Under the pieces are notes generated by a model. The model did not search any database. It saw only the letters and a program-made list of their open reading frames with translations, and was not told where the DNA came from. Positions 3,001-33,061 of a stretch of 64,000 bases of DNA are shown one piece after another. The position numbers and the translations under genes were made by a program. The DNA is taken from assembly GCA_963740415.1 (NCBI GenBank), contig CAVUEC010000011.1:449380-513379 (forward strand). The letters are read 5' to 3'. Within the stretch, counting starts at the first letter, position 1; the number at the start of each line of letters is the position of its first letter. The stretch is from Candidatus Eiseniibacteriota bacterium (GTDB lineage: Bacteria; Eisenbacteria; RBG-16-71-46; SZUA-252).

Positions 3001-6000
3001 GCGACCATCAACGCATCCACCGGCGCGTTCTCGTGGACCCCGACGGAAGCGCAGGGTCCGGGAACGTTCCCCGTCACGATTCGCGCCACCGACGACGGAA
3101 CACCGGCGCTGAGCGACTTCGAGGGGATCACGGTCACGGTCAATGAAGTGAATGTGGCGCCGGTGCTCGCCGCGATCGGAAGCAAGACGGTGAGCGAGCT
3201 GGCGACCGCTGGCATTCACCGCGACCGCGACGGATGCCGATCTTCCCGCGAACACGATCTCGTTCTCTCTGGACGCAGGAGCGCCGGCCGGTGCGACCAT
3301 CAACGCGTCGACCGGAGCGTTCTCCTGGACGCCGACCGAGGCCCAGGGCCCAGGATCATTCCCGATCACGATCCGGGCCACGGACAGCGGGACGCCGGCC
3401 TCTGAGCGACTTCGAGGGCATCACGGTCACGGTCAATGAGGTGAACGTGGCGCCCGCGGTCACCAATCCGGGCAACAAGACCGTCAATGAGCTGGTCGCG
3501 CTCGCGTTCACGGTCACCGCGACGGACGCCGATGTCCCGGCCAACACGGTGACCTGGTCGCTCGATGCCGGCGCTCCTGCCGGCGCGACCATTGGCGCCA
3601 CGACTGGGGCGTTCTCGTGGACTCCGACCGAGGCCCAGGGACCCGGCACTTACCCGGTGACCATTCGCGCCACGGACAACGGCACGCCGGCGCTGAGCGG
3701 CACGGCCGCGATCACGGTGACGGTCAACGACGTGAATGTGGCCCCGGCGCTCGCCGCGATCGGAAACAAGACGGTCAACGAGCTGGCGACCCTGGCGTTC
3801 ACCGCGACGGCGACGGACGCGGACCTTCCGGCGGACGCGATCTCGTTCTCCCTGGACGCGGGGGCTCCGGCGGGCGCGACCATCAACGCCACGACCGGCG
3901 CGTTCTCGTGGACGCCGACGGAAGCGCAGGGTCCGGGAGCATTCCCCGTCACGGTCCGCGCCACCGACGACGGAACACCGGCGCTGAGCGACTTCGAGGG
4001 GATCACCGTCACGGTGAACGAGGTGAACGTGGCGCCGGTGGTGACGAGCCCCGGGAACCATACGGTCAATGAGCTGAGCCTGCTCGCATTCACGGTGACC
4101 GCGACGGACGCCGACGTTCCGGCCAACACGCTGACGTTCTCGCTGGACGCAGGCGCTCCAGCCGGCGCGACCATCAACGCATCCACCGGCGCCTTCTCGT
4201 GGACGCCGACCGAGGCGCAGGGCCCGGGCGCGTACCCGATCACGATCCGCGCCACCGACAACGGAACCCCGGCGTTGAACGGCGCCGCGGCGATCACCGT
4301 TACGGTGAACGAGATGAACGTCGCGCCGACGCTCGCGGCGATCGGCAGCAAGACCGTGAACGAGCTGGTCGCGCTCGCCTTCACCGCCACCGCGACGGAT
4401 CCCGACGTCCCGGGCACGCTCACCTTCTCGTTGGACGCCGGAGCGCCGACCGGCGCCGCGATCAACGCGTCCACCGGGGCGTTTGCCTGGACCCCGACGG
4501 AGGCGCAGGGCCCAGGCAGCTATCCGATCACGGTGCGCGTCACGGACAACGGCGCGCCGGCCCTGGACGACTTCGAAACGATCACGGTCACCGTGAACGA
4601 GGTGAACGCCGCCCCGGTCCTCACGAATCCCGGCAACAAGACGGTCGCGGAGCTTTCGGCGCTCACGTTCACCGTGACGCCGACGGACTCCGACATTCCC
4701 GCGAACACGATGACGTGGTCTCTGGACGCCGGCGCTCCCGTTGGCTCGACGATCAACTCGGGCGGCGCCTTCAGCTGGACTCCGACGGAAGCGCAAGGCC
4801 CCGGCGTCTATCCGGTCACGATCCGGGCAACGGACAACGGAACCCCGGCGCTGGGCGGCACGACGGCGATCACGATCACCGTGACGGAGGTCAACGTCGC
4901 GCCGGTCATGAACAATCCGGGCAACAAGACCGTCAACGAGCTCGCGACCCTTTCGTTCACAGCGACCGCGACCGACGCGGACGTCCCGGCGAATACGTTC
5001 GCATGGTCCCTCGACGCCGGGGCTCCCGCGGGCGCCGCGATCGACGCCGGCACCGCCGCGTTCTCGTGGACCCCGACGGAGGCGCAGGGCCCGGGACTCT
5101 ACCCGGTCACGATTCGCGCGACCGACAACGGGGCGCCCGCGCTGAGCGACTTCCAGGTGATTACGGTGACCGTGAACGAAGTGAACGCGGCGCCGGCGGT
5201 GACCAACCCCGGCAACCGAACGGTCAACGAGCTCGTTGCACTCACGTTCACCGTGACGGCGACCGACTCCGACGTTCCCGCGAACTCCATGACGTGGTCC
5301 CTGGACGCCGGGGCGCCCGCCGGAGCCGCGATCAACGCGTCGACGGGGGCGTTCTCCTGGACCCCGACGGAAGCACAGGGCCCGGGCGTCTACCCGGTCA
5401 CGATTCGCGCCACCGACAACGGAACGCCCGCGCTGGCCGGCACCGCCGCGATCGCGATCACGGTCAACGACGTGAACTCGGCGCCGGCCTTGACCGCGAT
5501 CGGCAACAAGGCGGGCACGGTGGGCTCGCCGATCACGTTCACCGCGACGGCGACCGACCCGGACCTCCCGGCCAACACCCTGAGCTTCTCGCTCGACGCG
5601 GGCGCTCCGGCCGGCGCGACGATCAACGCGTCGACCGGAGCTTTCTCGTGGACCCCGGCCGCCAACGGCACGTTCCCCGTCACGGTCCGCGTGACCGACA
5701 ATGGAACGCCGGCCTTGAGCGACTTCGAGGCCGTCACGATCACGGTGAGCCCTGCGCCGAACCAGGCGCCGGTACTCGGCGCGATCGGCAATAAGACGGT
5801 GAACGAGCTGGCCACGCTGGCGTTCACGGCCACGGCGACCGATCCGGACGCGGGCCAGACGCTGACGTTCTCCCTGGACGCCGGAAATCCCTCCGGGTCC
5901 GCGATCAACGGAACCACGGGCGCCTTCTCGTGGACTCCAACCGAGGCCCAGGGGCCCGGAAGCTATCCCATCACGGTCCGGGTGACCGACAACGGGACCG

Positions 6001-9000
6001 CCCCGTTGAGTGATACGGAGGCGATCACGGTCACCGTCAACGAGGTGAACGCCGCGCCCGCGCTCGGTGCGATCGGCAACAGGACGGTGAACGAGCTCGT
6101 CGCGCTCACCTTTACGGCGACGGCGACCGATACCGATCTTCCGGCCAACGCCATCAGCTTCTCCATCGACGCCGGCGCACCCGGCGGCGCGACGATCAAC
6201 GCCTCGACGGGCGCATTCTCGTGGACCCCGACCGAGGCGCAGGGACCCGGCTCCTTCCCGATCACCATTCGCGCCACCGACAACGGCACGCCGGCGCTGA
6301 GCGATGCGGAGACGATCACGGTCACGGTGAACGAGGTCAACGCGCCGCCCGTGGTGATCGATCCGGGTGACAAGACGATCAACGAGATCGCCCTCCTGGC
6401 GTTCACCGTGACGGCGACGGACTCCGACGTTCCCGCGAACACGGTGGCGTGGTCGCTGGATGCCGGCTCGCCGGCGGGCGCGGCGATCAACGCATCGACG
6501 GGCGCATTCTCCTGGACTCCGACCGAAGCGCAGGGGCCGGGCACATATCCGATCACGATTCGCGCGACCGACAACGGAACGCCCGCGCTGAGCGGGACGG
6601 CTCCAATCACGGTCACGGTGAACGAGGCCAACGCCGCGCCGGTGGTAACGAATCCGGGCAACAAGACGGTCGACGAGTTGGCGGCGCTCGCGTTCACGGC
6701 CACCGCGACCGACTCCGACGTGCCGGCCAACACCGCCACGTGGTCCCTGGACGCCGGCGCCCCCGCGGGCGCGACGATCAACGCCTCGACGGGCGCATTC
6801 TCGTGGACCCCGACCGAAGCGCAGGGCCCGGGCTCGTTCCCGATCACCATCCGGGCGACCGACAACGGAACGCCCTCGCTGAGCGGTGCCGCGATCATCA
6901 CGGTCACGGTGAACGAGGTGAACGTGGCGCCGGTCGTGACCGATCCCGGCGACAAGACGGTGAACGAGCTGACCGCGCTCTCCTTCACGGTGACCGCGGC
7001 CGACCCCGACCTCCCGGCAAACACGCGGACGTGGTCGCTGGACGCCGGCGCCCCCGCCGGCGCGACGATCAACGCCTCAACCGGCGCGTTCAGCTGGACG
7101 CCGACGGAAGCGCAGGGGCCGGGGACCTATCCGGTCACGATTCGCGCGACCGACAACGGAACCCCCGCGCTGAGCGGTGCTACCACGATCACCGTCACGG
7201 TGAACGAGGTAAACGTCGCGCCCGTCGTGACGAACCCCGGGAACCGCACCGTCAACGAGCAGGTGGCGCTTTCCTTCTCTGTGACCGCGACCGATTCCGA
7301 CCTTCCCGCGAACGCGCTGACCTGGTCGCTCGACGCCGGCGCCCCCACGGGCGCCACGATCAACGCGACCACGCAGACATTCTCGTGGACGCCGAACGAG
7401 GCCCAGGGTCCCGGTACCTACCCGATCACCATTCGCGCCATCGATGACGGAACGCCCGCGCTGAGCGGCACGGCCGCGTTCACGGTCACGGTGTCCGAGG
7501 TCAACCGGCCTCCGGCGCTGACGACGATCGGCAACAAGGCAGGAACCGTAGGGATCCCCATCGCGTTCACCGCGACAGCGACGGACCCTGACACACCCGC
7601 CAATACGCTCGCCTTCTCACTGGATGCGGGCGCTCCGGCCGGCGCGACCATCAACGGGTCCACGGGCGCGTTCAACTGGACTCCCTCGACGAACGGCACC
7701 TTCCCCGTCACCATCCGCGTCACGGACAACGGGACGCCGGCGTTGAGCGACTTCGAGGCGATCACAATCGCGGTGAGTCCGGAGCCCAACCAGTCGCCGG
7801 TGCTCGGCGCGATCGGCAACAAGACGGTGAACGAGCTGGCGGCGCTTGCGTTCACGGCGACGGCTACCGATCCCAACGCGGGAGATCTGCTCGCGTTCTC
7901 CCTCGACGCGGGCGCCCCGACCGGAGCGGCGATCAACGGCTCGACAGGCGCGTTTGCCTGGACCCCAACCGAGTCGCAGGGCCCGGGCAGCTTCCCAATC
8001 GCCGTTCGCGTGACCGACAACGGCAGCCCAACCCTCAGCGACTTCGAGACGATCACGGTCACCGTAAACGAGGTGAACGCGGCGCCGGCGGTGGCGAGCC
8101 CAGGCGATAAGACGGTCAACGAGCATTCGAACCTCGCGTTCACGGCGGGCGCGGCCGACGCGGACCAGCCGGCGAACACGCTCGCCTGGTCCCTCGACGC
8201 GGGCGCGCCGGCGGGAGCCGCGATCAACGCGGCGACGGGCGCCTTCAGCTGGACTCCGACCGAGGCGCAGGGACCGGGCGTCTACCCCGTTACGATTCGG
8301 GCGACCGACAACGGAACGCCGGTTCTGAGCGGCGCCTCGGCGATCACGATCACGGTGAACGACGTGAACGCGGCGCCCGTGCTGGCCGCGATCGGCGACA
8401 AGACCGTGAACGAGCTCGCGACGATCACCTTCACGGCGACGGCCACGGACAGCGACGTGCCCTCCGGCATCGTGACCTTCTCGCTCGACGCGGGCGCTCC
8501 GGCCGGCGCCGCGATCAACGCTTCAACCGGTGCGTTCTCCTGGACGCCGACCGAAGCGCAGGGCCCGGGAAGCTACCCGGTGACGATCCGCGCGACCGAC
8601 AATGGAACGCCGTCCTTGAGCGATGCCGAGGCGATCGCCATCACGGTCAACGAGGTGAATATCGCGCCGGTCGTGGCGAGCCCGGGAAACCGGACCGTCA
8701 GCGAGCTGGCCGCGCTCAGCTTCGCGGTGACCGCGACCGACGCGGACGAGCCGACCAACGCGCTGAGCTGGTCGTTGGACGCGGGCGCTCCCGCCGGGGC
8801 CTCGATCAACGCCTCGACGGGAACCTTCGCGTGGACTCCCACGGAAGCGCAGGGATCCGGCACCTACCCGGTGACGATCCGCGCGACCGACAACGGGACG
8901 CCGGCCTTGAGCGGCACGGCGGCCGTCACGGTCGCGGTAACCGAGGCGAACGCGGCTCCCGTTCTGGCGCCGATCAGCGATCGAACGGTGAATGAGCAGG

Positions 9001-12000
9001 CCGCGTTGACCTTCACCGCCACGGCGACGGATGGTGATCTGCCCGCCAACACCCTGACCTTCTCGCTCGACGCAGGGTCGCCGACCGGCGCGACGATCAA
9101 CGCCTCGACGGGCGCGTTCTCCTGGACGCCCTCCGAGGCGCAGGGGCCGGGCACGTTCCCGGTCACGATCCGGGTGACGGACGGCGGGACCCCGACGCTC
9201 GGCGATTCTCAGACGTTTGCGGTCACCGTGAACGAGGTGAACGCCAGTCCGGTCGTGACAAATCCCGGCAACAAGACCGTCAACGAGCAGACGTTGCTGA
9301 GCTTCACCTTGACCGCGACCGACGCCGACGTTCCCGTCAACACGCTCACCTGGTCCCTGGACGCCGGCGCGCCGATGGGAGCCACCATCAACGCGACGAC
9401 GCACGTCTTCTCCTGGACGCCGACGGAGGCGCAAGGCCCCGGGGCGTACCCCATCACCGTCCGCGCCATCGACGACGGAACGCCGTCCCTGAGCGGGACG
9501 GCCCCGTTCACGGCGACCGTCAACGAGGTGAACATCGCGCCGGTTCTGGTGCCGATCGGGAACAAGGCGGGAACGGTCGGAATTCCCATCACGTTCACCG
9601 CGACGGCGACCGACGTGGACCTCCCGGTCAACACGCTCAGCTTCTCGGTCGACCCCGGCGCTCCGACCGGCGCGACGATCGACCCCTCGACGGGCGCCTT
9701 CACCTGGACGCCGACGGTAAACGGCGCAACCAGCGTCACCATCCGCGTGACCGACAACGGATCGCCACCCATGAACGACTTCGAGGTCGTTTCCCTCTCG
9801 GTGAGCGCGGCTCCCAACCGCGCCCCCGTGCTCGACGCGATCGGGGACCGCACGGTCAACGAGCTCGTCGCACTCACGTTCACGGCGACGGCGAACGATC
9901 CGGACGGCAACGCGATGACCTTCACCCTGGACGCCGGCGCCCCGGCCGGAGCGACGATCAACGGGGCGACAGGCGCGTTTGCATGGACCCCGACGGAGGC
10001 ACAGGGCCCGGGCAGCTTGCCCATCACGGTTCGGGTGACCGATAACGGCAGCCCTACCCTCAGCGACTTCGAAACGATCACGGTCACCGTCAACGAAGGT
10101 AACGAGCCGCCGGAGGTGGTCAGCCCTGGCAACCGGACCGTCCACGAGTTGTCCGCTCTCAACTTCACGGTGACCGCGACCGACGCCGACCTGCCGGCGA
10201 ACACGCTCTCCTGGTCCCTCGACGCGGGCGCGCCGAGCGGCGCCGGGATCAACGCATCGACGGGCGCATTCTCCTGGACGCCGACCGAGGCGCAGGGCCC
10301 GGGCTCCTATCCGGCGACGATTCGCGCGACCGACAACGGGTCGCCGGCGCTGGACGACGCGGCCGCGTTCACCATCCTGGTGGACGAGGTAAACGCCCCA
10401 CCCGTGCTGGCCGCGATCGGCGACAGGACCGTGGACGAGCTGGCCACGCTGGTCTTCACCGCCACCGCGACGGACGCGGATCTTCCCGCCAACGCCTTGA
10501 CATTCTCTCTCGACACGGGCGCGCCCGCGGGGGCGACGATCGGCGCCGCGACGGGCGCCTTCTCGTGGACTCCGTCCGAAGCAGACGGACCGGGCGTCCG
10601 TTCCGTGACGGTTCGGGTCGCGGACGACGGGTCGCCCTCTCTGAGCGACGCCGAGACGATCGCGATCACCGTCGTGGAAGTAAACTCGGCGCCGGTTCTG
10701 AACCCCATCGGCAACAAGGGGGGCGCGGTCGGCGTGCCCGTCGCGTTTACGGTGACCGCGACGGACGGGGACGTGCCCGCCAATTCGTTCGCCTTCTCGC
10801 TCGACGCGGGGGCACCCACGGGCGCGACGATCAACGCATCCACCGGCGCCTTCGGCTGGACGCCCAGTGCCACGGGCGTTTTCCCCGTGACGATCCGCGT
10901 GACGGACAACGGCACCCCGCCCTTGAGCGCCTTCGAGGAGATCACGATCACCGTGGGTTCGGCGCCGAACGCGCCACCGGTTCTCGCCGCGATCGGCGAC
11001 AAGACGGTGAACGAGGGGGCGGCCCTGGCCTTCACGGCGACCGCGACCGACCCCGACGCCGGCCAGACTCTGGCCTTCTCGCTCGACCCCGGGACTCCGG
11101 TCGGATCCTCGATCGACCCGGCGAGCGGCGTCTTCGGGTGGACCCCTACGGAGTCCCAGGGTCCAGGCAGCTATCCCATCACGGTCCGCGTCACCGACGA
11201 CGGGACCGGATTCCTGAGTGACTTCAAGACGCTCACCGTCACGGTGAACGAGGTGAACGCGGCACCCGTGCTCACCCCCGTTGGAAACAGGACCATCACG
11301 TCCGGCGCGCCCCTCGCCTTCACCGTCACCGCGACCGATGGAGACATCCCGGCCAACACGATCGCCTACACGCTGGGCGCGGGAGCTCCGGCCGGGGCGA
11401 CGATCGATCCCGGCACCGGTGCGTTCGCGTGGACGCCGTCCGCGGCGGGCGTGTATCCGTTGACGATCCGCGCCACCGACAACGGCGCGCCGCCAAAGAG
11501 CGCGACGGAAATGATCTTCATCACGGTGGGCGATCCCACGAACCGCGCACCGGTCCTGGCCGCCATCGGAAACCGGACCATCGACGAGTCGGTGCGCTCG
11601 ACCTTCACCGCGATCGCGACCGATCCCGACTTTGGACAGGGCCGGATCTTCACGCTGGATTCCGGCGCTCCCGCGGGAGCCACGATCAATCCAACGACTG
11701 GCGTCTTCGGCTGGACGCCGACGGACGCCCAGGGTCCGGGCAGCTACCCGGTCACGGTGCGGGTCACGGATAGCGGCACGCCGCCGTTGAGCGACTTCGA
11801 GACGATCACCGTCACGGTGCGCGACGTGAACGCGGCGCCGGTGCTCGTGGCCATCGGCAGCAAGACGGTTCTGCCCATGGTCGCGCTGACCTTCACCGCC
11901 ACCGCGACGGACCCGGACATTCCCGTGAACTCGCTCGCGTTCTCACTCGACGCGGGCTCGCCGCCGGGCGCCACAATCGACGCCGCGACGGGGGCGTTCA

Positions 12001-26152: not shown

Positions 26153-27703
26153 CTAGATCGCCGTACCGCCCACGGTGATGGAGGAAAAGCGGACCGTCGG
26201 CTGCCCCACACCCACGGGCACCCACTGCCCATCCTTGCCGCAGGTGCCGCGGGTCTGCTCCACGGCCAGGTCGCGGCCGATCCCCTCGATGAGGGTCATG
26301 GTCTGGAGCGAGTTCCCGATCAGGACCGCCCCCCGCACCGGCTGGGTGAGCTTGCCGTTCTCGATGAGGTAGCCGAGCCGGACGGCAAAATTGAAGTTCC
26401 CGCTCGTGGTGTCCACCGATCCGCCGCCCATTTCGGCGGCGTAGAAGCCCTTGGTGATCCCGCTCAGAAGCGACGCCGGGTCGCTCGTGCCGGCGTCGAT
26501 GTACGTGTTTGTCATCCTCGGGATCGGGCGGTTGCGGTAGGACATCCTCCTGCCGTTCCCGGTCGGCCGCATGGACAGAAGATTCCCGCTCTGGCGGTCG
26601 AGGAGATAGGACTGGAGGACACCGCCGTCGATCAGGACCGTCTTCTGGCCCAGCGTGGCCTCGTCGTCGACGGCGAACGAGCCGCGGCCGTTGGGCCACC
26701 GCGCGTCGTCCACGACGCGGAGGAGCGGCGAGCCCACCTTGGCGCCGAGCTTGCCGCTCAGAAACGACGTGTTGCGGCTGATGCCGTCTCCTTCGGACGC
26801 GTGCCCGAACGACTCGTGGATCAGCACGCCTCCCCAGCCCGGCCCGATCACCACCGGCATGGATCCGGCCGGCGCGGGTCCCGCGCCGAGCAGGGTGATC
26901 GCCTGCTTGGCGGCATCGCGGGCGACAGACTGGGGATCGCGCTTCTGGAAGTAGTACTCGTCGACGCGTCCCCCCATGGATGCGAATCCGGTGCGGCGGT
27001 CCGAGCCCTGCACTGCCGTCGGCGTGCAGACGATCGACACGAGGTACTGGCGGTCGATCACGTAGGCCCCGTCCGAGGTGCCGCACAGGATGTCCCGCGT
27101 CTCGTCCTGATACTCGATCCGAACGGAGACGATCCGAGGATCGACGCTCCGCGCCGCGGCGTCCATGCGTCCGAGGAGGTCGAACTTCGTCTGCTCGGCC
27201 ATCATCGGCGCGGGGGCGAGGATCGAGAACGGCGGGGGCGCATTGCGCAGTCTCACGTCCAATGGGCGCACGGGGCTCTGATTCTGGACGACGCTCGAGG
27301 CCACGTGCGCCGCGTCGAGGAGATCGTTGTAGGAGATTTCGTCGGTGAACGCGTGGCCTGTCTGCTTGCGCCGGAAGACGCGAACGGCGGCGCCGCGGGG
27401 ATAGCCGTAGGTGACGGAGTCGATCTTTCCGTCGTCGAGAACGATGTTGGTGCGGAATCGCTGCTCGGCAAACACGTCGGCGAAGTCGCCGCCGCGCTTC
27501 AGGGCCTCGATCAGGATCTGGTTGACCGTCTCGAGGTTCAAGACGTCGCGCAGCTCCTGGCCGATCCCCATGATGGCGGCCTCGGCCTGGCCCGCGCCTT
27601 TGACCCAAGGGAGCGACGAGGCTCCTCCGGCGAGAATGGCTCCGGAGAGGAGCGCGCTGTTTCTCAGAAACTCCCGCCGGGAGATGGAGTGGTCGGAACC
27701 CAT
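26153..27703 (-). CDS. tldD: TldD-family metalloprotease with twin-arginine (Tat) signal peptide
   Basis: Start MGSDHSISRREFLRNSALLSGAILAGG (RRxFL Tat motif), then a TldD core including HESFGH. 2 nt from the pmbA start. Confidence 0.85.
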   Translation of the reverse strand: MGSDHSISRREFLRNSALLSGAILAGGASSLPWVKGAGQAEAAIMGIGQELRDVLNLETVNQILIEALKRGGDFADVFAEQRFRTNIVLDDGKIDSVTYGYPRGAAVRVFRRKQTGHAFTDEISYNDLLDAAHVASSVVQNQSPVRPLDVRLRNAPPPFSILAPAPMMAEQTKFDLLGRMDAAARSVDPRIVSVRIEYQDETRDILCGTSDGAYVIDRQYLVSIVCTPTAVQGSDRRTGFASMGGRVDEYYFQKRDPQSVARDAAKQAITLLGAGPAPAGSMPVVIGPGWGGVLIHESFGHASEGDGISRNTSFLSGKLGAKVGSPLLRVVDDARWPNGRGSFAVDDEATLGQKTVLIDGGVLQSYLLDRQSGNLLSMRPTGNGRRMSYRNRPIPRMTNTYIDAGTSDPASLLSGITKGFYAAEMGGGSVDTTSGNFNFAVRLGYLIENGKLTQPVRGAVLIGNSLQTMTLIEGIGRDLAVEQTRGTCGKDGQWVPVGVGQPTVRFSSITVGGTAI

Positions 27704-27772
27704 CTGGTGCAGCCTGGCAGAATCGGGCCCGGGTTGCAAGAGGGCCGTGTCAATGCTACGGTTACGGGGACG

Positions 27773-28198
27773 ATGGAGCGGATCCGGAACAAGATCTTCT
27801 CGGTGGAAGAGGCGAACGAGCTCATCCCCTTCCTGGAGCGCACGCTCACCGACCTGGTCTCCTTGGGGCGCGACATCACGGAGTGCCGCAGGGAGATCGA
27901 GGTTCTTTCCGCCATCGAAAGCACCGGCGCGAGCCCGGCCAGCGCGGACGTCCAGGCGCTTCGCGCGCGGGAGAAGTCCTATGCGTCCAGCCTGGAGCGA
28001 TTCCGCGATACCCTCACCGAAATTTCCCGCCACGGATGCGTCCTTCGCGACCTGGAGCTGGGACTCGTCGACTTCTACACGATGGCCCGCGGCCAGGTCG
28101 TCTGCCTGTGCTGGAGGCGCGGCGAGGCGCGCATCGAGCATTGGCACCCGATCGACGAAGGATTCTCCGGCCGCCGCCCTCTCGAAGATCTGGCGTAG
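27773..28198 (+). CDS. DUF2203-family small protein
   Basis: 141 aa; GCVLRDLELGLVDFYT...VCLCWRRGE..IEHWHPIDEGFSGRRPL resembles DUF2203 (assignment from memory). Confidence 0.55.
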   Translation: MERIRNKIFSVEEANELIPFLERTLTDLVSLGRDITECRREIEVLSAIESTGASPASADVQALRAREKSYASSLERFRDTLTEISRHGCVLRDLELGLVDFYTMARGQVVCLCWRRGEARIEHWHPIDEGFSGRRPLEDLA

Positions 28199-28218
28199 CC
28201 GCCCACCGGCGTAGTCCC

Positions 28219-29935
28219 GTGGACAAACGAGACGTCTCGCGCGTACTGGAGGAGGTCGCGGTCCTTCTCGAGCTGAAGGGCGCCAATCCCTTCAAGATTC
28301 GCGCCTACGAGAACGCGGCCCGCGCGATCGACGGACTGACCCAGGATCTCGGCGCGCTCATCGAGGAAGGGACGCTGATCGACGTGAAGGGGATCGGCGA
28401 TTCCATCGCGAGAAACGTCGCCGAGTTCTGGAAGACCGGCCACATGAAGTTCTACGAGGAGCTGGCCGATTCGACGCCCCCCGGTTACCTCGACATGATC
28501 CGCGTCCCGGGTCTCGGAGCGAAGAAGGTTCGCGCCCTGGGCGCGGCCCTCGACATCACGTCCCTCGCCGACCTGAAGCGCGCCGCCGAGCAGGGAAAGA
28601 TCCGGGACCTGCCTGGATTTGGAGAGAAGTCCGAGAAGAAGATCCTCCAGGGCGTGGCGCTCGTGGAAGGCGGCGCGGGCCGGCACCTGGCCGCCGAGGT
28701 GAGGCCGCTGGCCGAGGATCTCCTGGCCAAGCTCCGGAACATGCCGGAGGTGGAGCAGGCCGAGGTCGGCGGAAGCCTCCGGCGCTGGGTGGAGACGGTG
28801 AAGGATGTCGACCTGCTGGTCGCGACCAACCACCCGGCCGCGGTCACGAAGGCGTACATGAAGCTCGTGCCCGACGCGACCGTGATCGGAAGCGGAGAGA
28901 CCAAGACCTCGGTGAGGCTCCCGAGCGGGCTGGCGGTCGATCTGCGGTTGGTCACGCCGTAGAGAATTCCCCTTCGCGCTCCACTACTTCACGGGAAACG
29001 TGGCCCACAACATCCGCATCCGCTCGCGCGCCCTGGATCGCGGATGGAGCTTGAACGAGTACGCACTCTCGGGGAAGAAGCGGCACGCCGCGATCGCGAG
29101 CGAGGCCGACCTCTTCAAGGTCCTGGGCCTTCCCTACATCGAGCCGGAGCTTCGCGAGGACCGCGGCGAGATCGAGGCCGCGGAGAAGGGCGCCCTCCCC
29201 GACCTGATCACGCTGGACGACCTCCGCGGCCTCATCCATTGCCACACGACGTACAGCGACGGGCGCGCGACGCTCGAGGAAATGGCCAAGGGCGCGGAGA
29301 AGTGGGGCGCGGAGTATCTCGGACTCACCGATCACAGCGCGTCGGCCCGGTACGCGAACGGCCTCTCCGAGGACGACCTCAAGCGCCAGCACGCGGACAT
29401 CGACAAGTGGAACGCCAAGTCGAAGAAGCTCCGCATTCTCAAGGGAGCGGAGGTTGACATTCTCCCCGACGGAACCCTGGACTATCCGGGCAAGGTCCTC
29501 GCCCGGCTCGACTTCGTCATCGCCTCCATCCACACCAACTTCACCATGAACGAGGAGGAGATGACGCGGCGCGTCGTCCGCGCGCTCCGTAATCGCTACG
29601 TCGGCATCCTGGCGCATCCCACCGGGCGCCTTCTGCTCCAGCGCGACGGCTTCAAGATCCACCTTGAGGAGATCTTCAAGGTGGCCGCCGAAGAGGGCGT
29701 CGTCATCGAGCTGAACGCGAACCCGCACCGGCTGGAGCTGGACTGGCGGCAGATCCCGGCGGCCAAGGAGGCGAAGGTCCGGTTCGCGGTCAATCCGGAC
29801 GCCCACGACGTCGCGGGCTACAACGATCTCGTTTACGGCATCGGCGCGGCGCGCAAGGGATGGCTGACCGCGAAGGACGTGATCAACTGCCTCCCCGCCG
29901 ACAAGGCGCTCTCCATTCTCCGGGCCCGGCGATGA
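28219..29935 (+). CDS. polX: DNA polymerase X family (Pol beta-like polymerase domain + C-terminal PHP phosphoesterase domain). Apparent +1 frameshift near 28960
   Basis: GTG start (VDKRDVSRVLEEVAVLLELKGANPFKIRAYENAAR). The C-terminal PHP domain continues in the +1 frame (…EFPFALHYFTGNVAHNIRIRSRA…HCHTTYSDG…), giving a 572-aa collinear PolX. Confidence 0.8.
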
Positions 29936-31476
29936 AACGCCGCGCGATCGCTGGATCCGGCCGACGGCGCCGCGCCACCGCGACCGTCCGGTTCTTCCCC
30001 AACGATCCGGACGCTCCCACCGGCCTGGTTCCCGCGACCCCGCTCCCCCGCGCGCTGGGCGATCCGCCCTACGTGATCGAGGGGCGGCGCTATGCGCCCG
30101 CGCCGTACGCGCCCGGGACCCTCGCGTTTCAGTACTGGCAGGGCGAGATCGCACTCGCGCGCACGGTGCGGGTGTGGGAGGACCTCTTCGACCGGGACTT
30201 TTCGGCCTGGGAGAGCGGCCGGCCGCTCCGGGTGCGCCTTCGCGCCGGCAAGGATCTGAACGCGTTTTACGATCGGAAAGGCCTCCAGTTCTTCTACGAC
30301 GTCGATCGCAAGACCGGCCGCACCGTGTACGCGGCCGAGAGCCTCGACGTCGTGGCCCATGAGGCGGGACACGCCGTGCTCGACGTCTATCAGCCCGGGT
30401 ACTGGTCGAGCGTGGACCTGGAAACGGCCGCGTTTCACGAGGCGTTCGGCGACTGTTCGGCGCTCCTGACCACGCTCACCGATGCCTCAGTGCGGGCTGC
30501 ATTCCTCGAGGAAACGAAGGGCTCGCTCCGGAAGAGCAATCTCGTGTCCAGGCTGGCGGAAGCCCTCGGGCGCGCTCTCTACGATAACTACGGGCCGGGA
30601 TCGGTGAGCGACCCCACCCGGCTGCGCGACGCCAACAACTCGTTCCGGTACGCTGCGCCCGACCGCCTTTCCCCGAGCGCCCCGGACAACCGCCTTGCCG
30701 CCGAGCCCCATTCCTTTTCACGAGTCTTCACCGGCGCGTTTTACGACACGTTGATCTGGCTCGTCGCGCGGGAGCTGAAGCGGGAACCGTCAGAAGCGGC
30801 GCTGGAGCGCGCGCGGCGTCTGGCCGGACGGATTCTGGGCCGCGCGGTGGAGACCGTGCCGCCGGGCGACGCCCGCTACGCGACCGTGGCCGCGCGCATG
30901 CGGGATATCGATCAGACGGAAGAAGGCGGCGTGGCTTCGGTGGGGATCGAGCTGGGCTTCGCGCGCCACGGCATCCGGCTCCCGCCGCTCCCCGTTTCCC
31001 GGCGGAACCAGGCGCGCCCGAGCCCTTACCGCGCGCTGCGCGCCCTGGATCCGGACCGCCCGGGCGGAGGCGCGGCCCTCCGGGCGGCGCTGCGGGTGCC
31101 ACCGGGGGCGCGCATCGAGCGCACGTCCCTTCCCGCCCGGGTGGGCGGAGGCGTCCGCGAGCAATTCATTCACAGGGATGCGATCGAAGTCCGAGACCGG
31201 TCCCTGGGACGGCTGAGCGGGGTAACGGTCGGGATTCACTGCGGCTGCACGTTGACGCGGGGACCCTCGGGTGACGTCGAGGGCGCCTCCCTGGCGCCTC
31301 ATCCTCACCCGACATCCGGTGAGGTGGCCCGCCAGCTCAGGCGCTGGATGGCGATGGACGCGATCGAGATTTCAGGGCGCGGCGCGGCCGCTCGGAGCAG
31401 CCGCGACCTCTTCCGGGATCGAAAGCCGTTCCGCGTGACTCCCTCCCGGCACATCGAGCGCGTCTACTTCGACTGA
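29932..31476 (+). CDS. Uncharacterised cytoplasmic gluzincin with thermolysin (M4)-like active-site core; start overlaps the polX stop (ATGA)
   Basis: NAFYDRKGLQFFYDVD...LDVVAHEAGHAVLD...(20 aa)...FHEAFGDCSA aligns with thermolysin NAFWNGSEMVYGDGDG...VVAHELTHAVTD...NEAISDIFG. No signal peptide, Arg-rich termini. Confidence 0.6.
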   Translation: MKRRAIAGSGRRRRATATVRFFPNDPDAPTGLVPATPLPRALGDPPYVIEGRRYAPAPYAPGTLAFQYWQGEIALARTVRVWEDLFDRDFSAWESGRPLRVRLRAGKDLNAFYDRKGLQFFYDVDRKTGRTVYAAESLDVVAHEAGHAVLDVYQPGYWSSVDLETAAFHEAFGDCSALLTTLTDASVRAAFLEETKGSLRKSNLVSRLAEALGRALYDNYGPGSVSDPTRLRDANNSFRYAAPDRLSPSAPDNRLAAEPHSFSRVFTGAFYDTLIWLVARELKREPSEAALERARRLAGRILGRAVETVPPGDARYATVAARMRDIDQTEEGGVASVGIELGFARHGIRLPPLPVSRRNQARPSPYRALRALDPDRPGGGAALRAALRVPPGARIERTSLPARVGGGVREQFIHRDAIEVRDRSLGRLSGVTVGIHCGCTLTRGPSGDVEGASLAPHPHPTSGEVARQLRRWMAMDAIEISGRGAAARSSRDLFRDRKPFRVTPSRHIERVYFD

Positions 31477-31573
31477 ACGGGCGTGCCGCGCCGCCGGCAT
31501 CGCGCACCGCTCGGCGCCGTATACAGAACCGTCGCGTGGCCGAGCCAGGTGATCGAAACGCCGAGGTTCCTGG

Positions 31574-32389
31574 TCATCGGGCCCTCCGCGACGCTGCTTT
31601 CTTTCGCGCGGGCTTCGCCGTCTTCCGTTTGGCGCCGCCCGGCTTCTTCCGCGGACCTCTCGCCGCCTTCTTCCGGGCGGGTTTCGCGGCCTTCCTGCCG
31701 CCCGCCTTCGCGCCCGCGGCGCGCGATCCGGCCCGGGCCTTCTCCCACGGCGGAACCTTGCCGCTCTGAAAGTAGGCCGCGCTCGGGCAGAGATCCTTCA
31801 CGGCGCACTCCGAGCACTTTGGCTTCCGCGCGACGCAGGTGCGCCGTCCGTGCACGATGAGGAGGTGGGCGAACAGGATCCACTCATCGCGCGGAAGAAC
31901 CCGCATCAGATCGCGCTCCACCTCCTCGGGCGTTCCCCCGCGGGTCAGTCCCAGCCGTTTCGCGATTCGATGGACGTGGGTATCCACCACCACTCCCGCC
32001 GGGATCCCAAACGCCGTGCCCAAGACCACGTTCGCGGTCTTCCGCGCCACGCCCTGGAGCGTGAGCAGCTCCTCCATCGTGCGCGGAACGGTACCGCCGA
32101 ACGCCTCCACGATGCGCTGAGACGCGGCCCGGATGGACTTGGCTTTGTTCCGGTAGAACCCCGTCGAGCGGATGATCGCCTCGAGCGCCTCCTGCGTGGC
32201 GCCGCTCATCGCGGCCGGGTCGGGGTACTGGGCGAACAACGTCGGCGTCACCATGTTGACCCGCGCGTCCGTGCACTGCGCGGACAGGATCGTGGCCACC
32301 AGAAGCTGGAACGGGTTCTCGTGGGTTAAAGCGCAGGCCGCGTCCGGGTACGCCCGGCGCAGGCGTTCGATCAACGCCGCGACGTCCAT
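31574..32389 (-). CDS. nth: Endonuclease III (Nth) with an ~50-aa Lys/Ala/Pro-rich histone-H1-like C-terminal tail
   Basis: HhH-GPD and [4Fe-4S] Cys cluster (C..C..C....C). Tail AKAGGRKAAKPARKKAARGPRKKPGGAKRKTAKPARKKAASRRAR. Confidence 0.9.
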   Translation of the reverse strand: MDVAALIERLRRAYPDAACALTHENPFQLLVATILSAQCTDARVNMVTPTLFAQYPDPAAMSGATQEALEAIIRSTGFYRNKAKSIRAASQRIVEAFGGTVPRTMEELLTLQGVARKTANVVLGTAFGIPAGVVVDTHVHRIAKRLGLTRGGTPEEVERDLMRVLPRDEWILFAHLLIVHGRRTCVARKPKCSECAVKDLCPSAAYFQSGKVPPWEKARAGSRAAGAKAGGRKAAKPARKKAARGPRKKPGGAKRKTAKPARKKAASRRAR

Positions 32390-33061
32390 CTAGTTCTGGC
32401 GGCGGTCGGGCGGGTAGAGGTGCCGCGCCCGATCGAGAGTGTCCTGCGTGGCGGAGGCCTCGAACAACACCTGGTACACGGACCGATAACGCAATTCGGT
32501 GCTCTCCATCTCCAGCAGGCGCTGTTTCACGGCGGGCTCCACGTTCAAGTTCATCGCGATGGTGTTCACGATCGCGTCGGCGCCCATCTTGGCCCCGAAG
32601 GTGGCCGCCACGTCCAGAGCCGCCCCCTTCGCCTCGTGGAACCGGCGGAACATCTCGAGCAGTTCCTTCGACGCGTCGGGCGTGGTCTCGCGGGAGATCC
32701 AGGCCTCGTCGTCGTTCAGGCGGCGCATTCGCGCGATCCGGAACGGCTGCTCGCGCTCGAAGCGATCGATGGCCACCTTGTACTCGCCCTGGAGCGTGAG
32801 GTTGTAGCGGCCGTCCGGCAGCTCCTGGTAGCTCGCGACGCGGCCGACGCACGCGATGGGATGGACGTCCGGCGAACCGTAGTAATCCGCCTCCCAGCCG
32901 GGCTTCAGGAGGGCCATGCAGATCGACTGGCCTCCCGCGAGCACTTCCTCCATCATCAGGCGATACCGCGGCTCGAATATGTGCAGTGAGAGGACGGCCT
33001 TCGGAAAGAGGACCACGTTTGGAAGCGGGAAGACCGGCTGTGTTTCATGATCGTCCGACAC
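32390..33061 (-). CDS. LON N-terminal (substrate-binding) domain-only protein
   Basis: PLFPLPNVVLFP...EPRY motif of the Lon N-domain family; 223 aa; no ATPase or protease domain. Confidence 0.7.
   Translation of the reverse strand: MSDDHETQPVFPLPNVVLFPKAVLSLHIFEPRYRLMMEEVLAGGQSICMALLKPGWEADYYGSPDVHPIACVGRVASYQELPDGRYNLTLQGEYKVAIDRFEREQPFRIARMRRLNDDEAWISRETTPDASKELLEMFRRFHEAKGAALDVAATFGAKMGADAIVNTIAMNLNVEPAVKQRLLEMESTELRYRSVYQVLFEASATQDTLDRARHLYPPDRRQN

Follow-up and report, generated by a model that had tools for sequence, protein, structure and literature searches.

Within the 64,000-nucleotide stretch of DNA analysed here (the window), a DUF2203 gene, polX and a gene for a 514-residue protein with a thermolysin-type zinc site follow one another on the forward strand. 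They form an operon, whose features are collected in Table 1 together with those of the genes that face it. The DUF2203 gene does lie upstream of polX, as originally predicted. It is preceded by a promoter-like element so close to the initiation codon that the transcript would have little or no leader. Across nine aligned Eisenbacteria loci GGTTGCAAG is invariant, with a TAnnnT-type hexamer after it. A promoter scan based on a strict consensus made no call at this position, and neither an internal promoter nor a terminator was called within the operon. No Rfam family and no tRNA were detected in the window.

Table 1. Features of the DUF2203-polX-protease locus (window coordinates)
Feature	Position	Strand	Remarks
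Promoter-like element, TTGCAA, 17 nt, TACGGT	27734..27762	+	Followed after 10 nt by the DUF2203 ATG
DUF2203 gene, 141 aa	27773..28198	+	First gene of the operon; PF09969, E 1.2e-32
polX, N-terminal part (HhH_8, HhH_5, palm)	28219..28962	+	Premature TAG at 28960-28962
polX frameshift, 1-nt insertion	28950..28962	+	GTCACGCCGTAG versus GTCAC-ACGTAA in L083
polX, C-terminal part (thumb and PHP)	28961..29935	+	+1 frame; stop TGA at 29933-29935
Thermolysin-fold metallopeptidase gene, 514 aa	29932..31476	+	ATG overlaps the upstream polX TGA as ATGA
Basic disordered N-terminal tail, aa 1-18	29932..29985	+	7 Arg/Lys, pI 12
Catalytic domain, thermolysin fold, aa 19-355	29986..30996	+	
HEAGH	30358..30372	+	His143 and His147, zinc ligands; Glu144, general base
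FHEAFGD	30433..30453	+	Glu170, third zinc ligand; Asp174
Basic, family-specific C-terminal alpha/beta domain, aa 366-514	31027..31473	+	pI 11.3
MBL-fold hydrolase remnant	31506..31577	-	First 24 codons; remainder deleted
nth (endonuclease III)	31574..32389	-	Convergent with the operon; Pfam HhH-GPD and EndIII_4Fe-2S
Lon N-terminal (substrate-binding) domain protein	32390..33061	-	LON_substr_bdg, E 3.7e-34

The polX frameshift and the flanking genes

The original prediction treated polX as one open reading frame. In the window it is split by an additional base near position 28955 (ACGCCGT instead of AC-ACGT), whereas PolX is an intact protein of 571 residues in L083, a 94%-identical relative, and in all the other relatives. 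The second part is recognized by Pfam as DNA_pol_B_thumb and PHP, and by NCBIfam as PolX (NF006375, E 7.6e-95). The dN/dS ratio is 0.065 for the N-terminal part (versus L083) and 0.059 for the C-terminal part; the same comparison with L083 gives 0.08 for the DUF2203 gene and 0.11 for the protease gene, the latter value indicating purifying selection. The ATG of the protease gene (29932-29934) overlaps the stop codon of the PHP-domain frame (29933-29935) within the ATGA, as had been claimed. The frameshift, if real, would disturb this coupling in the window.

On the other side of the protease gene, an MBL-fold gene stands between it and nth in L083; the window lacks about 650 bp of this gene. 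The original prediction of a neighbouring nth holds as regards its convergent orientation and its product's basic tail (a 60-residue Lys/Arg/Ala/Pro extension of pI 12 at the C-terminal end of Nth), except that the MBL remnant stands in between. On the minus strand, the gene for the Lon-N protein immediately precedes nth, a position conserved in relatives, and the surroundings also include a MutT-like NUDIX gene and, in some relatives, AhpC. The frameshift in polX and the deletion in the MBL-fold gene are two lesions that annotators of this locus will want to take into account.

Catalytic site, fold and domain organization of the protease

The zinc-binding motifs proposed for the protease are present: N110-A-F-Y113, V-V-A-H143-E-A-G-H147-A-V-L-D151 and F168-H-E170-A-F-G-D174, with 23 residues from H147 to E170 rather than the approximately 20 proposed. 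In hhalign alignments, H143, E144, H147, E170 and D174 correspond to H142, E143, H146, E166 and D170 of thermolysin, and the five residues are invariant in 21 diverse family members whose identity with the window protein ranges from 28 to 79%. Arg232 and His260 also match catalytic residues of thermolysin, and H260, the equivalent of thermolysin His231, is invariant across the family. The position of the transition-state residue Tyr157 is taken by Trp158, with Tyr/Phe beside it at 157. Structure comparison of the predicted model and hhalign both show a two-domain, thermolysin-type gluzincin fold in which the catalytic residues align, in agreement with the original prediction.

Family profiles capture this relationship only in part. 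Pfam Peptidase_M4 (PF01447) matches marginally, over residues 75-150 only, with 24.5 bits for a cut-off of 22.4. PF02868 (M4_C) gives no match even at E <= 10, although the equivalent region aligns both structurally and by hhalign. PF02128 (M36) does not match the window protein; among its relatives it gives a few weak matches, one of them over the cut-off. Profile searches of the PDB retrieve M36 enzymes and thermolysin, while the catalytic core, searched as a single sequence, gave no hit there. Nothing useful came from scanning the protease and the DUF2203 protein with NCBIfam and PADLOC, and no PDB relative of the DUF2203 protein was found.

The catalytic domain is flanked by two basic regions. 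The first 13 residues of the N-terminal tail have a pLDDT below 50 in the predicted model; its length and sequence differ among orthologues, all of which have a basic tail. The C-terminal domain, of about 150 residues, is modelled with confidence as a well-folded unit, has no match in the PDB or Pfam, and keeps its basic character across the family.

The claim that the protease has neither a signal peptide nor a propeptide was upheld. The scan for signal peptides and transmembrane segments was negative (maximal Kyte-Doolittle 19-mer, 0.99; maximal 10-mer in residues 1-50, 0.7), the alternative, longer reading frame starting at 29860 likewise has an N-terminus devoid of hydrophobicity, the fold begins at about residue 19, and no FTP or PepSY propeptide domain was matched by Pfam. 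A cytoplasmic location, deduced solely from the absence of such signals, is therefore the most likely one.

These properties set the protein apart from the known branches of the clan. Textbook thermolysin-type proteases are secreted, and depend on a propeptide both for folding and for staying inactive; M36 enzymes are secreted too, with a large N-terminal prodomain. The window protein is about 16% identical to thermolysin/M4 enzymes (pseudolysin LasB), from which it differs by the lack of a signal peptide and of an FTP/PepSY propeptide, by an undetectable PF02868, by Trp at the Tyr157 position, and by the addition of the basic tail and of a 150-residue basic C-terminal domain of no known fold. 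The missing PF02128 match distinguishes it from fungalysin (M36). In the original prediction an intracellular enzyme of M4 type was a departure from secreted M4 peptidases, a view weakened by the protealysin-like proteases, which are intracellular M4 enzymes devoid of signal peptides (PMC9505478, PMC6778150). Protealysin, which is made inside the cell, has its activity held in check by a partner and accepts RecA and FtsZ as substrates in vitro (PMC9505478), is of thermolysin type like the window protein. It falls squarely within M4, however, has a short N-terminal propeptide and shares its operon with an emfourin gene, whereas the window protein belongs to a different sequence family, lacks a propeptide and carries the additional C-terminal domain. 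A tblastn search with an emfourin protein found no homologue in the window, where the operon partners are instead DUF2203 and polX.

Conservation of the locus and extent of the family

The order DUF2203-polX-protease is found in every Eisenbacteria-type locus with sufficient flanking sequence (the window and 64 relatives), and the coupling of polX to the protease gene extends to the relatives: the stop and start codons overlap as NTGA in 62 of these 65 loci. The three-gene unit and its overlap persist at 58-80% protein identity. Downstream of the protease gene content varies, the MBL and AhpC genes being gained or lost. The unit belongs to a 12-kb block, from PmbA/TldD to YceI, that is syntenic in Eisenbacteria and contains no secretion-system genes.

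The family itself is much larger. It comprises more than 1300 close homologues of the protease and 2026 clusters at 50% identity from at least 548 species of many phyla, is annotated almost entirely as 'hypothetical', and its most distant members mostly score below the PF01447 cut-off. In a set of 82 loci spanning many phyla, nothing resembling a hydrophobic signal-peptide N-terminus was conspicuous ahead of the conserved NDP/EDD motif. Outside Eisenbacteria, PolX, DUF2203 and Nth were absent from within 4-6 kb of all 97 more distant homologous loci, as were polX and DUF2203 from within about 5 kb of the protease homologues at three plasmid loci. (The plasmid records are sparsely annotated.) Adjacency is thus kept in the Eisenbacteria clade, at 58% identity or more, and not beyond. 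Clustering all open reading frames of the 82 loci against one another uncovered no conserved neighbour outside Eisenbacteria, since only shadow frames of the protease gene itself recurred. Stand-alone genes with unrelated neighbours occur in Streptomyces, Sorangium, rhizobia, Nostoc, Chloroflexi and Acidobacteria. In the genomes surveyed, linkage to polX, DUF2203 and Nth is a feature of one orthologous clade and not a property of the family.

A broader link between DUF2203 and polX was sought and not found: the homologue search yielded close relatives only, and at two distant loci, in Thermomicrobium and Brevibacillus, DUF2203 does not adjoin polX. Searches of the literature turned up neither a report that connects PolX with a protease nor any account of what DUF2203 does.

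Possible roles of the protease

The reading I favour, and consider probable from the alignments and the structure model, is that the protein is an active zinc endopeptidase of thermolysin fold, most likely cytoplasmic, and the representative of a large unannotated family distinct from M4 and M36. It would be synthesized by termination-reinitiation of ribosomes that have translated polX, and hence be co-expressed with PolX, and it would cleave peptides or proteins through the same mechanism as thermolysin. The C-terminal domain might stand in for the missing propeptide, as a folding aid, a gate or both, or else recruit substrates; together with the basic tail, it could anchor the enzyme to a polyanion, for instance the nucleoid. 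In the Eisenbacteria clade the protease may act at PolX/Nth repair sites, a role that would not extend to the family. Against this reading stand Trp158 at the Tyr157 position, the undetected M4_C and the marginal M4 match, as well as the fused modules and adjoining exporter seen in distant members, which could point to non-classical export.

Alternatively, the protein could be a peptidase of general function that has come to follow polX through chance gene order in a single phylum; the overlap would then reflect no more than compact operon packing and be silent on function. The stand-alone members with unrelated neighbours in other phyla, the conservation of the whole PmbA/TldD-YceI block and the unlinked DUF2203 genes of Thermomicrobium and Brevibacillus are all consistent with this. 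Yet the three-gene unit and its NTGA overlap survive at 58-80% identity while downstream genes come and go, and obligatory co-expression is implied by the presence of one conserved promoter for all three genes; I regard an accident as unlikely.

Another hypothesis is that the enzyme is a repair protease which works with PolX, is tethered to DNA by its tail and C-terminal domain, and degrades proteins covalently trapped on DNA, for example the Schiff-base intermediates of PolX or Nth, thereby freeing the gap for filling by PolX. It draws on the strict, clade-wide translational coupling to polX amid changing neighbours, and on a setting that includes Nth, the MutT-like NUDIX protein, the Lon-N protein and sometimes AhpC. 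The basic disordered tail of all orthologues, the similar Lys/Arg/Ala/Pro tails that recur in family members of other phyla and on Nth in the window, and the pI of the C-terminal domain argue in the same direction. SprT, Wss1 and SPRTN are likewise intracellular HExxH zinc proteases, and the basic regions of the window protein, the sole hints of DNA binding, could in principle contact DNA. Its fold, however, is that of thermolysin and not the SprT/WLM minimal zincin. In addition, the adjacency is restricted to one orthologous clade, being absent from the 97 other loci and the three plasmid loci, no neighbour is conserved elsewhere in the family, and the fusion partners found (HAD, tyrosinase, PLD and peptidoglycan-binding modules) include no DNA-repair or DNA-binding domain. 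Moreover, the 12-kb block is syntenic as a whole, so that the adjacency may be merely inherited. On balance a repair protease is unlikely. The specific form of the idea, by analogy with SPRTN/Wss1, in which Eisenbacteria would have recruited a thermolysin-fold protease that is coupled to PolX, held on DNA and clears crosslinked proteins or peptide stubs from base-excision-repair intermediates, is distinctly doubtful. If it is true, proteolysis of DNA-protein crosslinks would have arisen twice, independently, the second time on a completely different protease fold.

Export of the protease by a non-classical route as an effector or toxin, with the C-terminal domain as a secretion or immunity-related module, appears very unlikely. 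Some distant members do carry DUF2272 plus peptidoglycan-binding, PLD or tyrosinase modules ahead of the protease, others are fused to a chitosanase-like module or adjoin a chitosanase, and others adjoin a C39-ABC/HlyD exporter with tiny open reading frames, but none of these partners is present at Eisenbacteria loci and the 12-kb block offers no secretion system. Basic Lys/Arg tails are not known to be secretion signals, which also counts against export. Protealysin has been proposed to be such an effector (PMC9505478), and in Nostoc one homologue is followed, 357 bp downstream, by an emfourin-family gene; this neighbour occurs at 1 of the 82 loci, and its product has a signal peptide of its own. 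Emfourin was rejected as a conserved partner, as tblastn detected it neither at the other loci nor in the window.

That the protein is a catalytically dead scaffold, or that the gene is not real, is highly improbable: Trp in place of Tyr157 and the marginal Pfam score could be read that way, but the family shows no variation in the zinc ligands, in the general base or in the equivalent of His231, and the dN/dS ratio and number of homologues given above are those of a real gene.

No description of a dedicated repair-linked protease of this kind in bacteria was found in the literature, and the way the gene is strictly coupled to polX throughout one phylum is a concrete lead to one, if with modest odds. 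More generally, a large family here breaks the thermolysin pattern, having no signal peptide, no propeptide and a C-terminal domain unmatched in the PDB. How such an enzyme folds and stays harmless inside the cell is a question whose answer would extend what is known of this protease clan.

Fold and active site of the protease

The original prediction assigned the 514-residue protease to the thermolysin type and regarded it as devoid of signal peptide and propeptide. The motifs on which it relied, NAFY (residues 110–113), VVAHEAGHAVLD (140–151) and FHEAFGD (168–174), are all present, and the structural interpretation proved right. The Pfam Peptidase_M4 match is marginal (24.5 bits, the cut-off being 22.4; residues 75–150 only), M4_C does not match, and NCBIfam and PADLOC scans returned nothing. 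In fold comparisons, the protease scored 22.5 against thermolysin (260 residues, 16% identity), 21.6 against M36 fungalysin, 21.1 against LasB, about 11 against M1 aminopeptidases and 7.1 against Wss1, while profile-profile alignment with thermolysin gave an E value of 3e-6 (probability 88%). N110-AFY of the protease pairs with N112-AFW of thermolysin, H143, E144 and H147 with H142, E143 and H146, E170 and D174 with E166 and D170, R232 with R203, H260 with H231, and W158 with Tyr157. Across an alignment of members 28–79% identical to the window protein, these protease residues are invariant, except W158, which is kept in at least 90% of members. From about residue 19 onwards the protein follows mature thermolysin in the succession of its secondary-structure elements and even in residue numbers, which leaves no space for a propeptide at the N-terminus. 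Residues 1–18 form a basic, disordered tail, and neither a signal peptide nor a transmembrane segment was found.

Residues 366–514 constitute a separate alpha/beta domain, modelled confidently on its own (pLDDT 90.9), for which none of 15 members gave a Pfam match. This domain is strongly basic (pI 11.3, versus a near-neutral 6.3 for the catalytic domain), a charge split found in 18 of 21 family members. Given that a propeptide is missing and that the C-terminal domain is conserved and confidently packed, this domain may stand in for the propeptide, helping the enzyme to fold or gating it, or may recruit substrates. In the Eisenbacteria proteins a beta-strand of the domain invariably contains CGC, and the C-terminus reads RVYFD; CGC is missing from many distant members, which terminate in R-x-x-F-x-C-G instead (P0137, P0138, P0192, P0195, P0207, P0238, P0251 and P0256), and some have neither. 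The two motifs could represent a relocated functional cysteine, perhaps a zinc cap or a redox switch.

The polX locus in the window and in relatives

Features of the protease locus in the window
Feature	Position	Strand	Remark
TldD homologue, start	27580–27703	-	MGSDHSISRREFLRNSALLSGAILAGGASS...
DUF2203 gene	27773–28198	+	Pfam E 1.2e-32
polX		+	between DUF2203 and protease; split into two frames
Extra base in polX	28950–28962		ACGCCGT; AC-ACGT in L083
TAG in polX	28960–28962
Protease ORF	29932–31476	+	514 aa
CGC of the protease	31240–31248		residues 437–439
Deletion in MBL-fold gene	31480–31577		~650 bp of L083 absent
MBL-fold gene remnant	31506–31577	-	first 24 codons
Endonuclease III (nth)	31574–32389	-	convergent with DUF2203/PolX/protease
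Endonuclease III C-terminal tail	31574–31750	-	...GRKAAKPARKKAARGPRKKPGGAKRKTAKPARKKAASRRAR, pI 12
Lon N-terminal-domain protein	32390–33061	-	convergent with DUF2203/PolX/protease

The layout, the overlap and the motifs were largely as first described; a broken polX and a deleted MBL-fold gene had been overlooked. The protease ORF does overlap the end of the polX frame, its ATG at 29932 sharing bases with the polX TGA (cgATGAaac). The HhH/palm part of polX is terminated prematurely, and the thumb and PHP part continues in the +1 frame. The TAG is made by a one-base insertion relative to L083, the closest relative locus (protease 94% identical), which, like all other relatives, encodes a single 571-aa PolX. 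Since both halves are under strong purifying selection (dN/dS versus L083 of 0.065 for HhH/palm and 0.059 for thumb and PHP), the frameshift would either have arisen very recently, making polX a pseudogene of very recent date, or reflect an indel error of the long-contig assembly. Between the protease gene and nth, only the start is left of an MBL-fold (Lactamase_B_3) hydrolase gene that is present in L083 and also missing from several other Eisenbacteria loci (L102, L111, L121). A promoter-like TTGCAA-17-TAnnnT element, conserved in nine aligned loci, lies upstream of DUF2203, its window copy ending 10 nt 5' of the ATG. Endonuclease III ends in a histone-H1-like 60-aa Lys/Arg/Ala/Pro tail. 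The start of the TldD homologue resembles a twin-arginine (Tat) export signal; TldD and PmbA of E. coli are cytoplasmic, so that an exported pair would be unusual.

Conservation of the protease-polX adjacency holds within the Eisenbacteria-type clade and fails in all 97 more distant loci. In the clade (58–100% identity; the window, 10 genome loci and 54 metagenome loci), PolX lies directly upstream wherever enough sequence is available, and a 4-nt NTGA stop/start overlap occurs in 62 of 65 loci (45 GTGA, 13 ATGA, 3 TTGA and 1 CTGA). PolX, DUF2203 and Nth were all absent within 4–6 kb of the more distant homologues (36–48% identity; 73 genome and 24 metagenome loci), as were polX and DUF2203 within about 5 kb at three plasmid loci, and clustering of all ORFs brought out no further neighbour conserved beyond the clade. 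The DUF2203 genes of Thermomicrobium and Brevibacillus do not adjoin polX. Immediately 3' of the protease, Eisenbacteria-type loci vary, the MBL gene being present or absent and AhpC inserted in some. The block of about 12 kb from PmbA/TldD to YceI is wholly syntenic in Eisenbacteria, so that part of the adjacency signal may be simple inheritance. Two contigs labelled Acidobacteriota (L008) and Hyphomicrobiales (L009) carry the Eisenbacteria DUF2203-polX-protease block with 71–78% protein identity and are probably mis-binned.

Distribution and architecture of the family

A word-indexed search returned over 1300 close homologues; those that carry names come mostly from Candidatus Eisenbacteria MAGs, a few being labelled Limnocylindrales. 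Exhaustive searching, with clusters formed at 50% identity, gave 2026 of them with E ≤0.001 and 490 with E ≤1e-30, most of about 450–520 aa and matching residues 17–350 at 35–48% identity. At least 548 loci in GTDB species genomes hold a relative, among others in Streptomyces, Sorangium cellulosum So ce56, Mesorhizobium, Nostoc, Chloroflexi, Acidobacteria, Verrucomicrobia, Gemmatimonadales and Planctomycetes. Plasmid copies bear the annotation 'hypothetical protein', in one case 'M36 family metallopeptidase'. In 82 loci, the sequence ahead of the conserved (N/E)D(P/D) motif showed no conspicuous N-terminus of signal-peptide type, and many members begin 5–10 residues before that motif. Lys/Arg/Ala/Pro-rich N-terminal tails recur in several phyla; that of orthologue L117 (upstream of nt 1268) contains VTPAKRR three times in tandem, indicating a tail that evolves by repeat expansion and stays basic. 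Longer members bear N-terminal HAD, tyrosinase plus DUF7868, PLD, or DUF2272 plus peptidoglycan-binding modules, and P0256 joins chitosanase-like and peptidoglycan-binding modules to the protease domain. One plasmid homologue adjoins a C39-peptidase ABC transporter and HlyD with several 50–57-aa ORFs (L085, Mesorhizobium amorphae pM0123d, 4929–9949), another a chitosanase (L087, Microvirga, 3144–6410). In the closest non-Eisenbacteria homologues (Chloroflexi, 46–48% identity; L012, 5028–5474), the protease gene is closely preceded by a gene for a BMC-domain (microcompartment shell) protein and by a 156-aa ORF that lacks annotation.

Function of the protease

The original prediction offered the hypothesis that the protease degrades DNA-bound proteins and works with PolX gap-filling, by analogy with DNA-protein crosslink proteases such as SprT. 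Circumstantial support comes from the strict coupling to polX in one clade, from a neighbourhood suited to oxidative-damage repair (PolX, Nth, a MutT-like NUDIX and sometimes AhpC) and from basic tails resembling that of Nth. However, the fold is not that of SprT, the fusion partners in the family are unrelated to repair and the remainder of the family lacks any repair link. On evidence from the whole family, the putative repair function is unlikely to extend across it.

The family belongs to the already known thermolysin clan, and an intracellular M4-type protease has a precedent in protealysin of Serratia, which is produced within the cell, is restrained by emfourin, an inhibitor encoded in its operon, and cuts RecA and FtsZ in vitro (PMC9505478). 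In Nostoc sp. LEGE 12447 the homologue is followed, after 357 bp, by an emfourin-family gene (PF20242, E 2e-24; L017, 7689–8075) whose product has a signal peptide; none was seen at the other loci. The safest reading is that the protease is a predicted active zinc endopeptidase of thermolysin mechanism, probably cytoplasmic, from a broad uncharacterised family. In Eisenbacteria its gene would have been captured by a DUF2203-polX operon, in which it stands last, its translation presumably coupled to that of polX.
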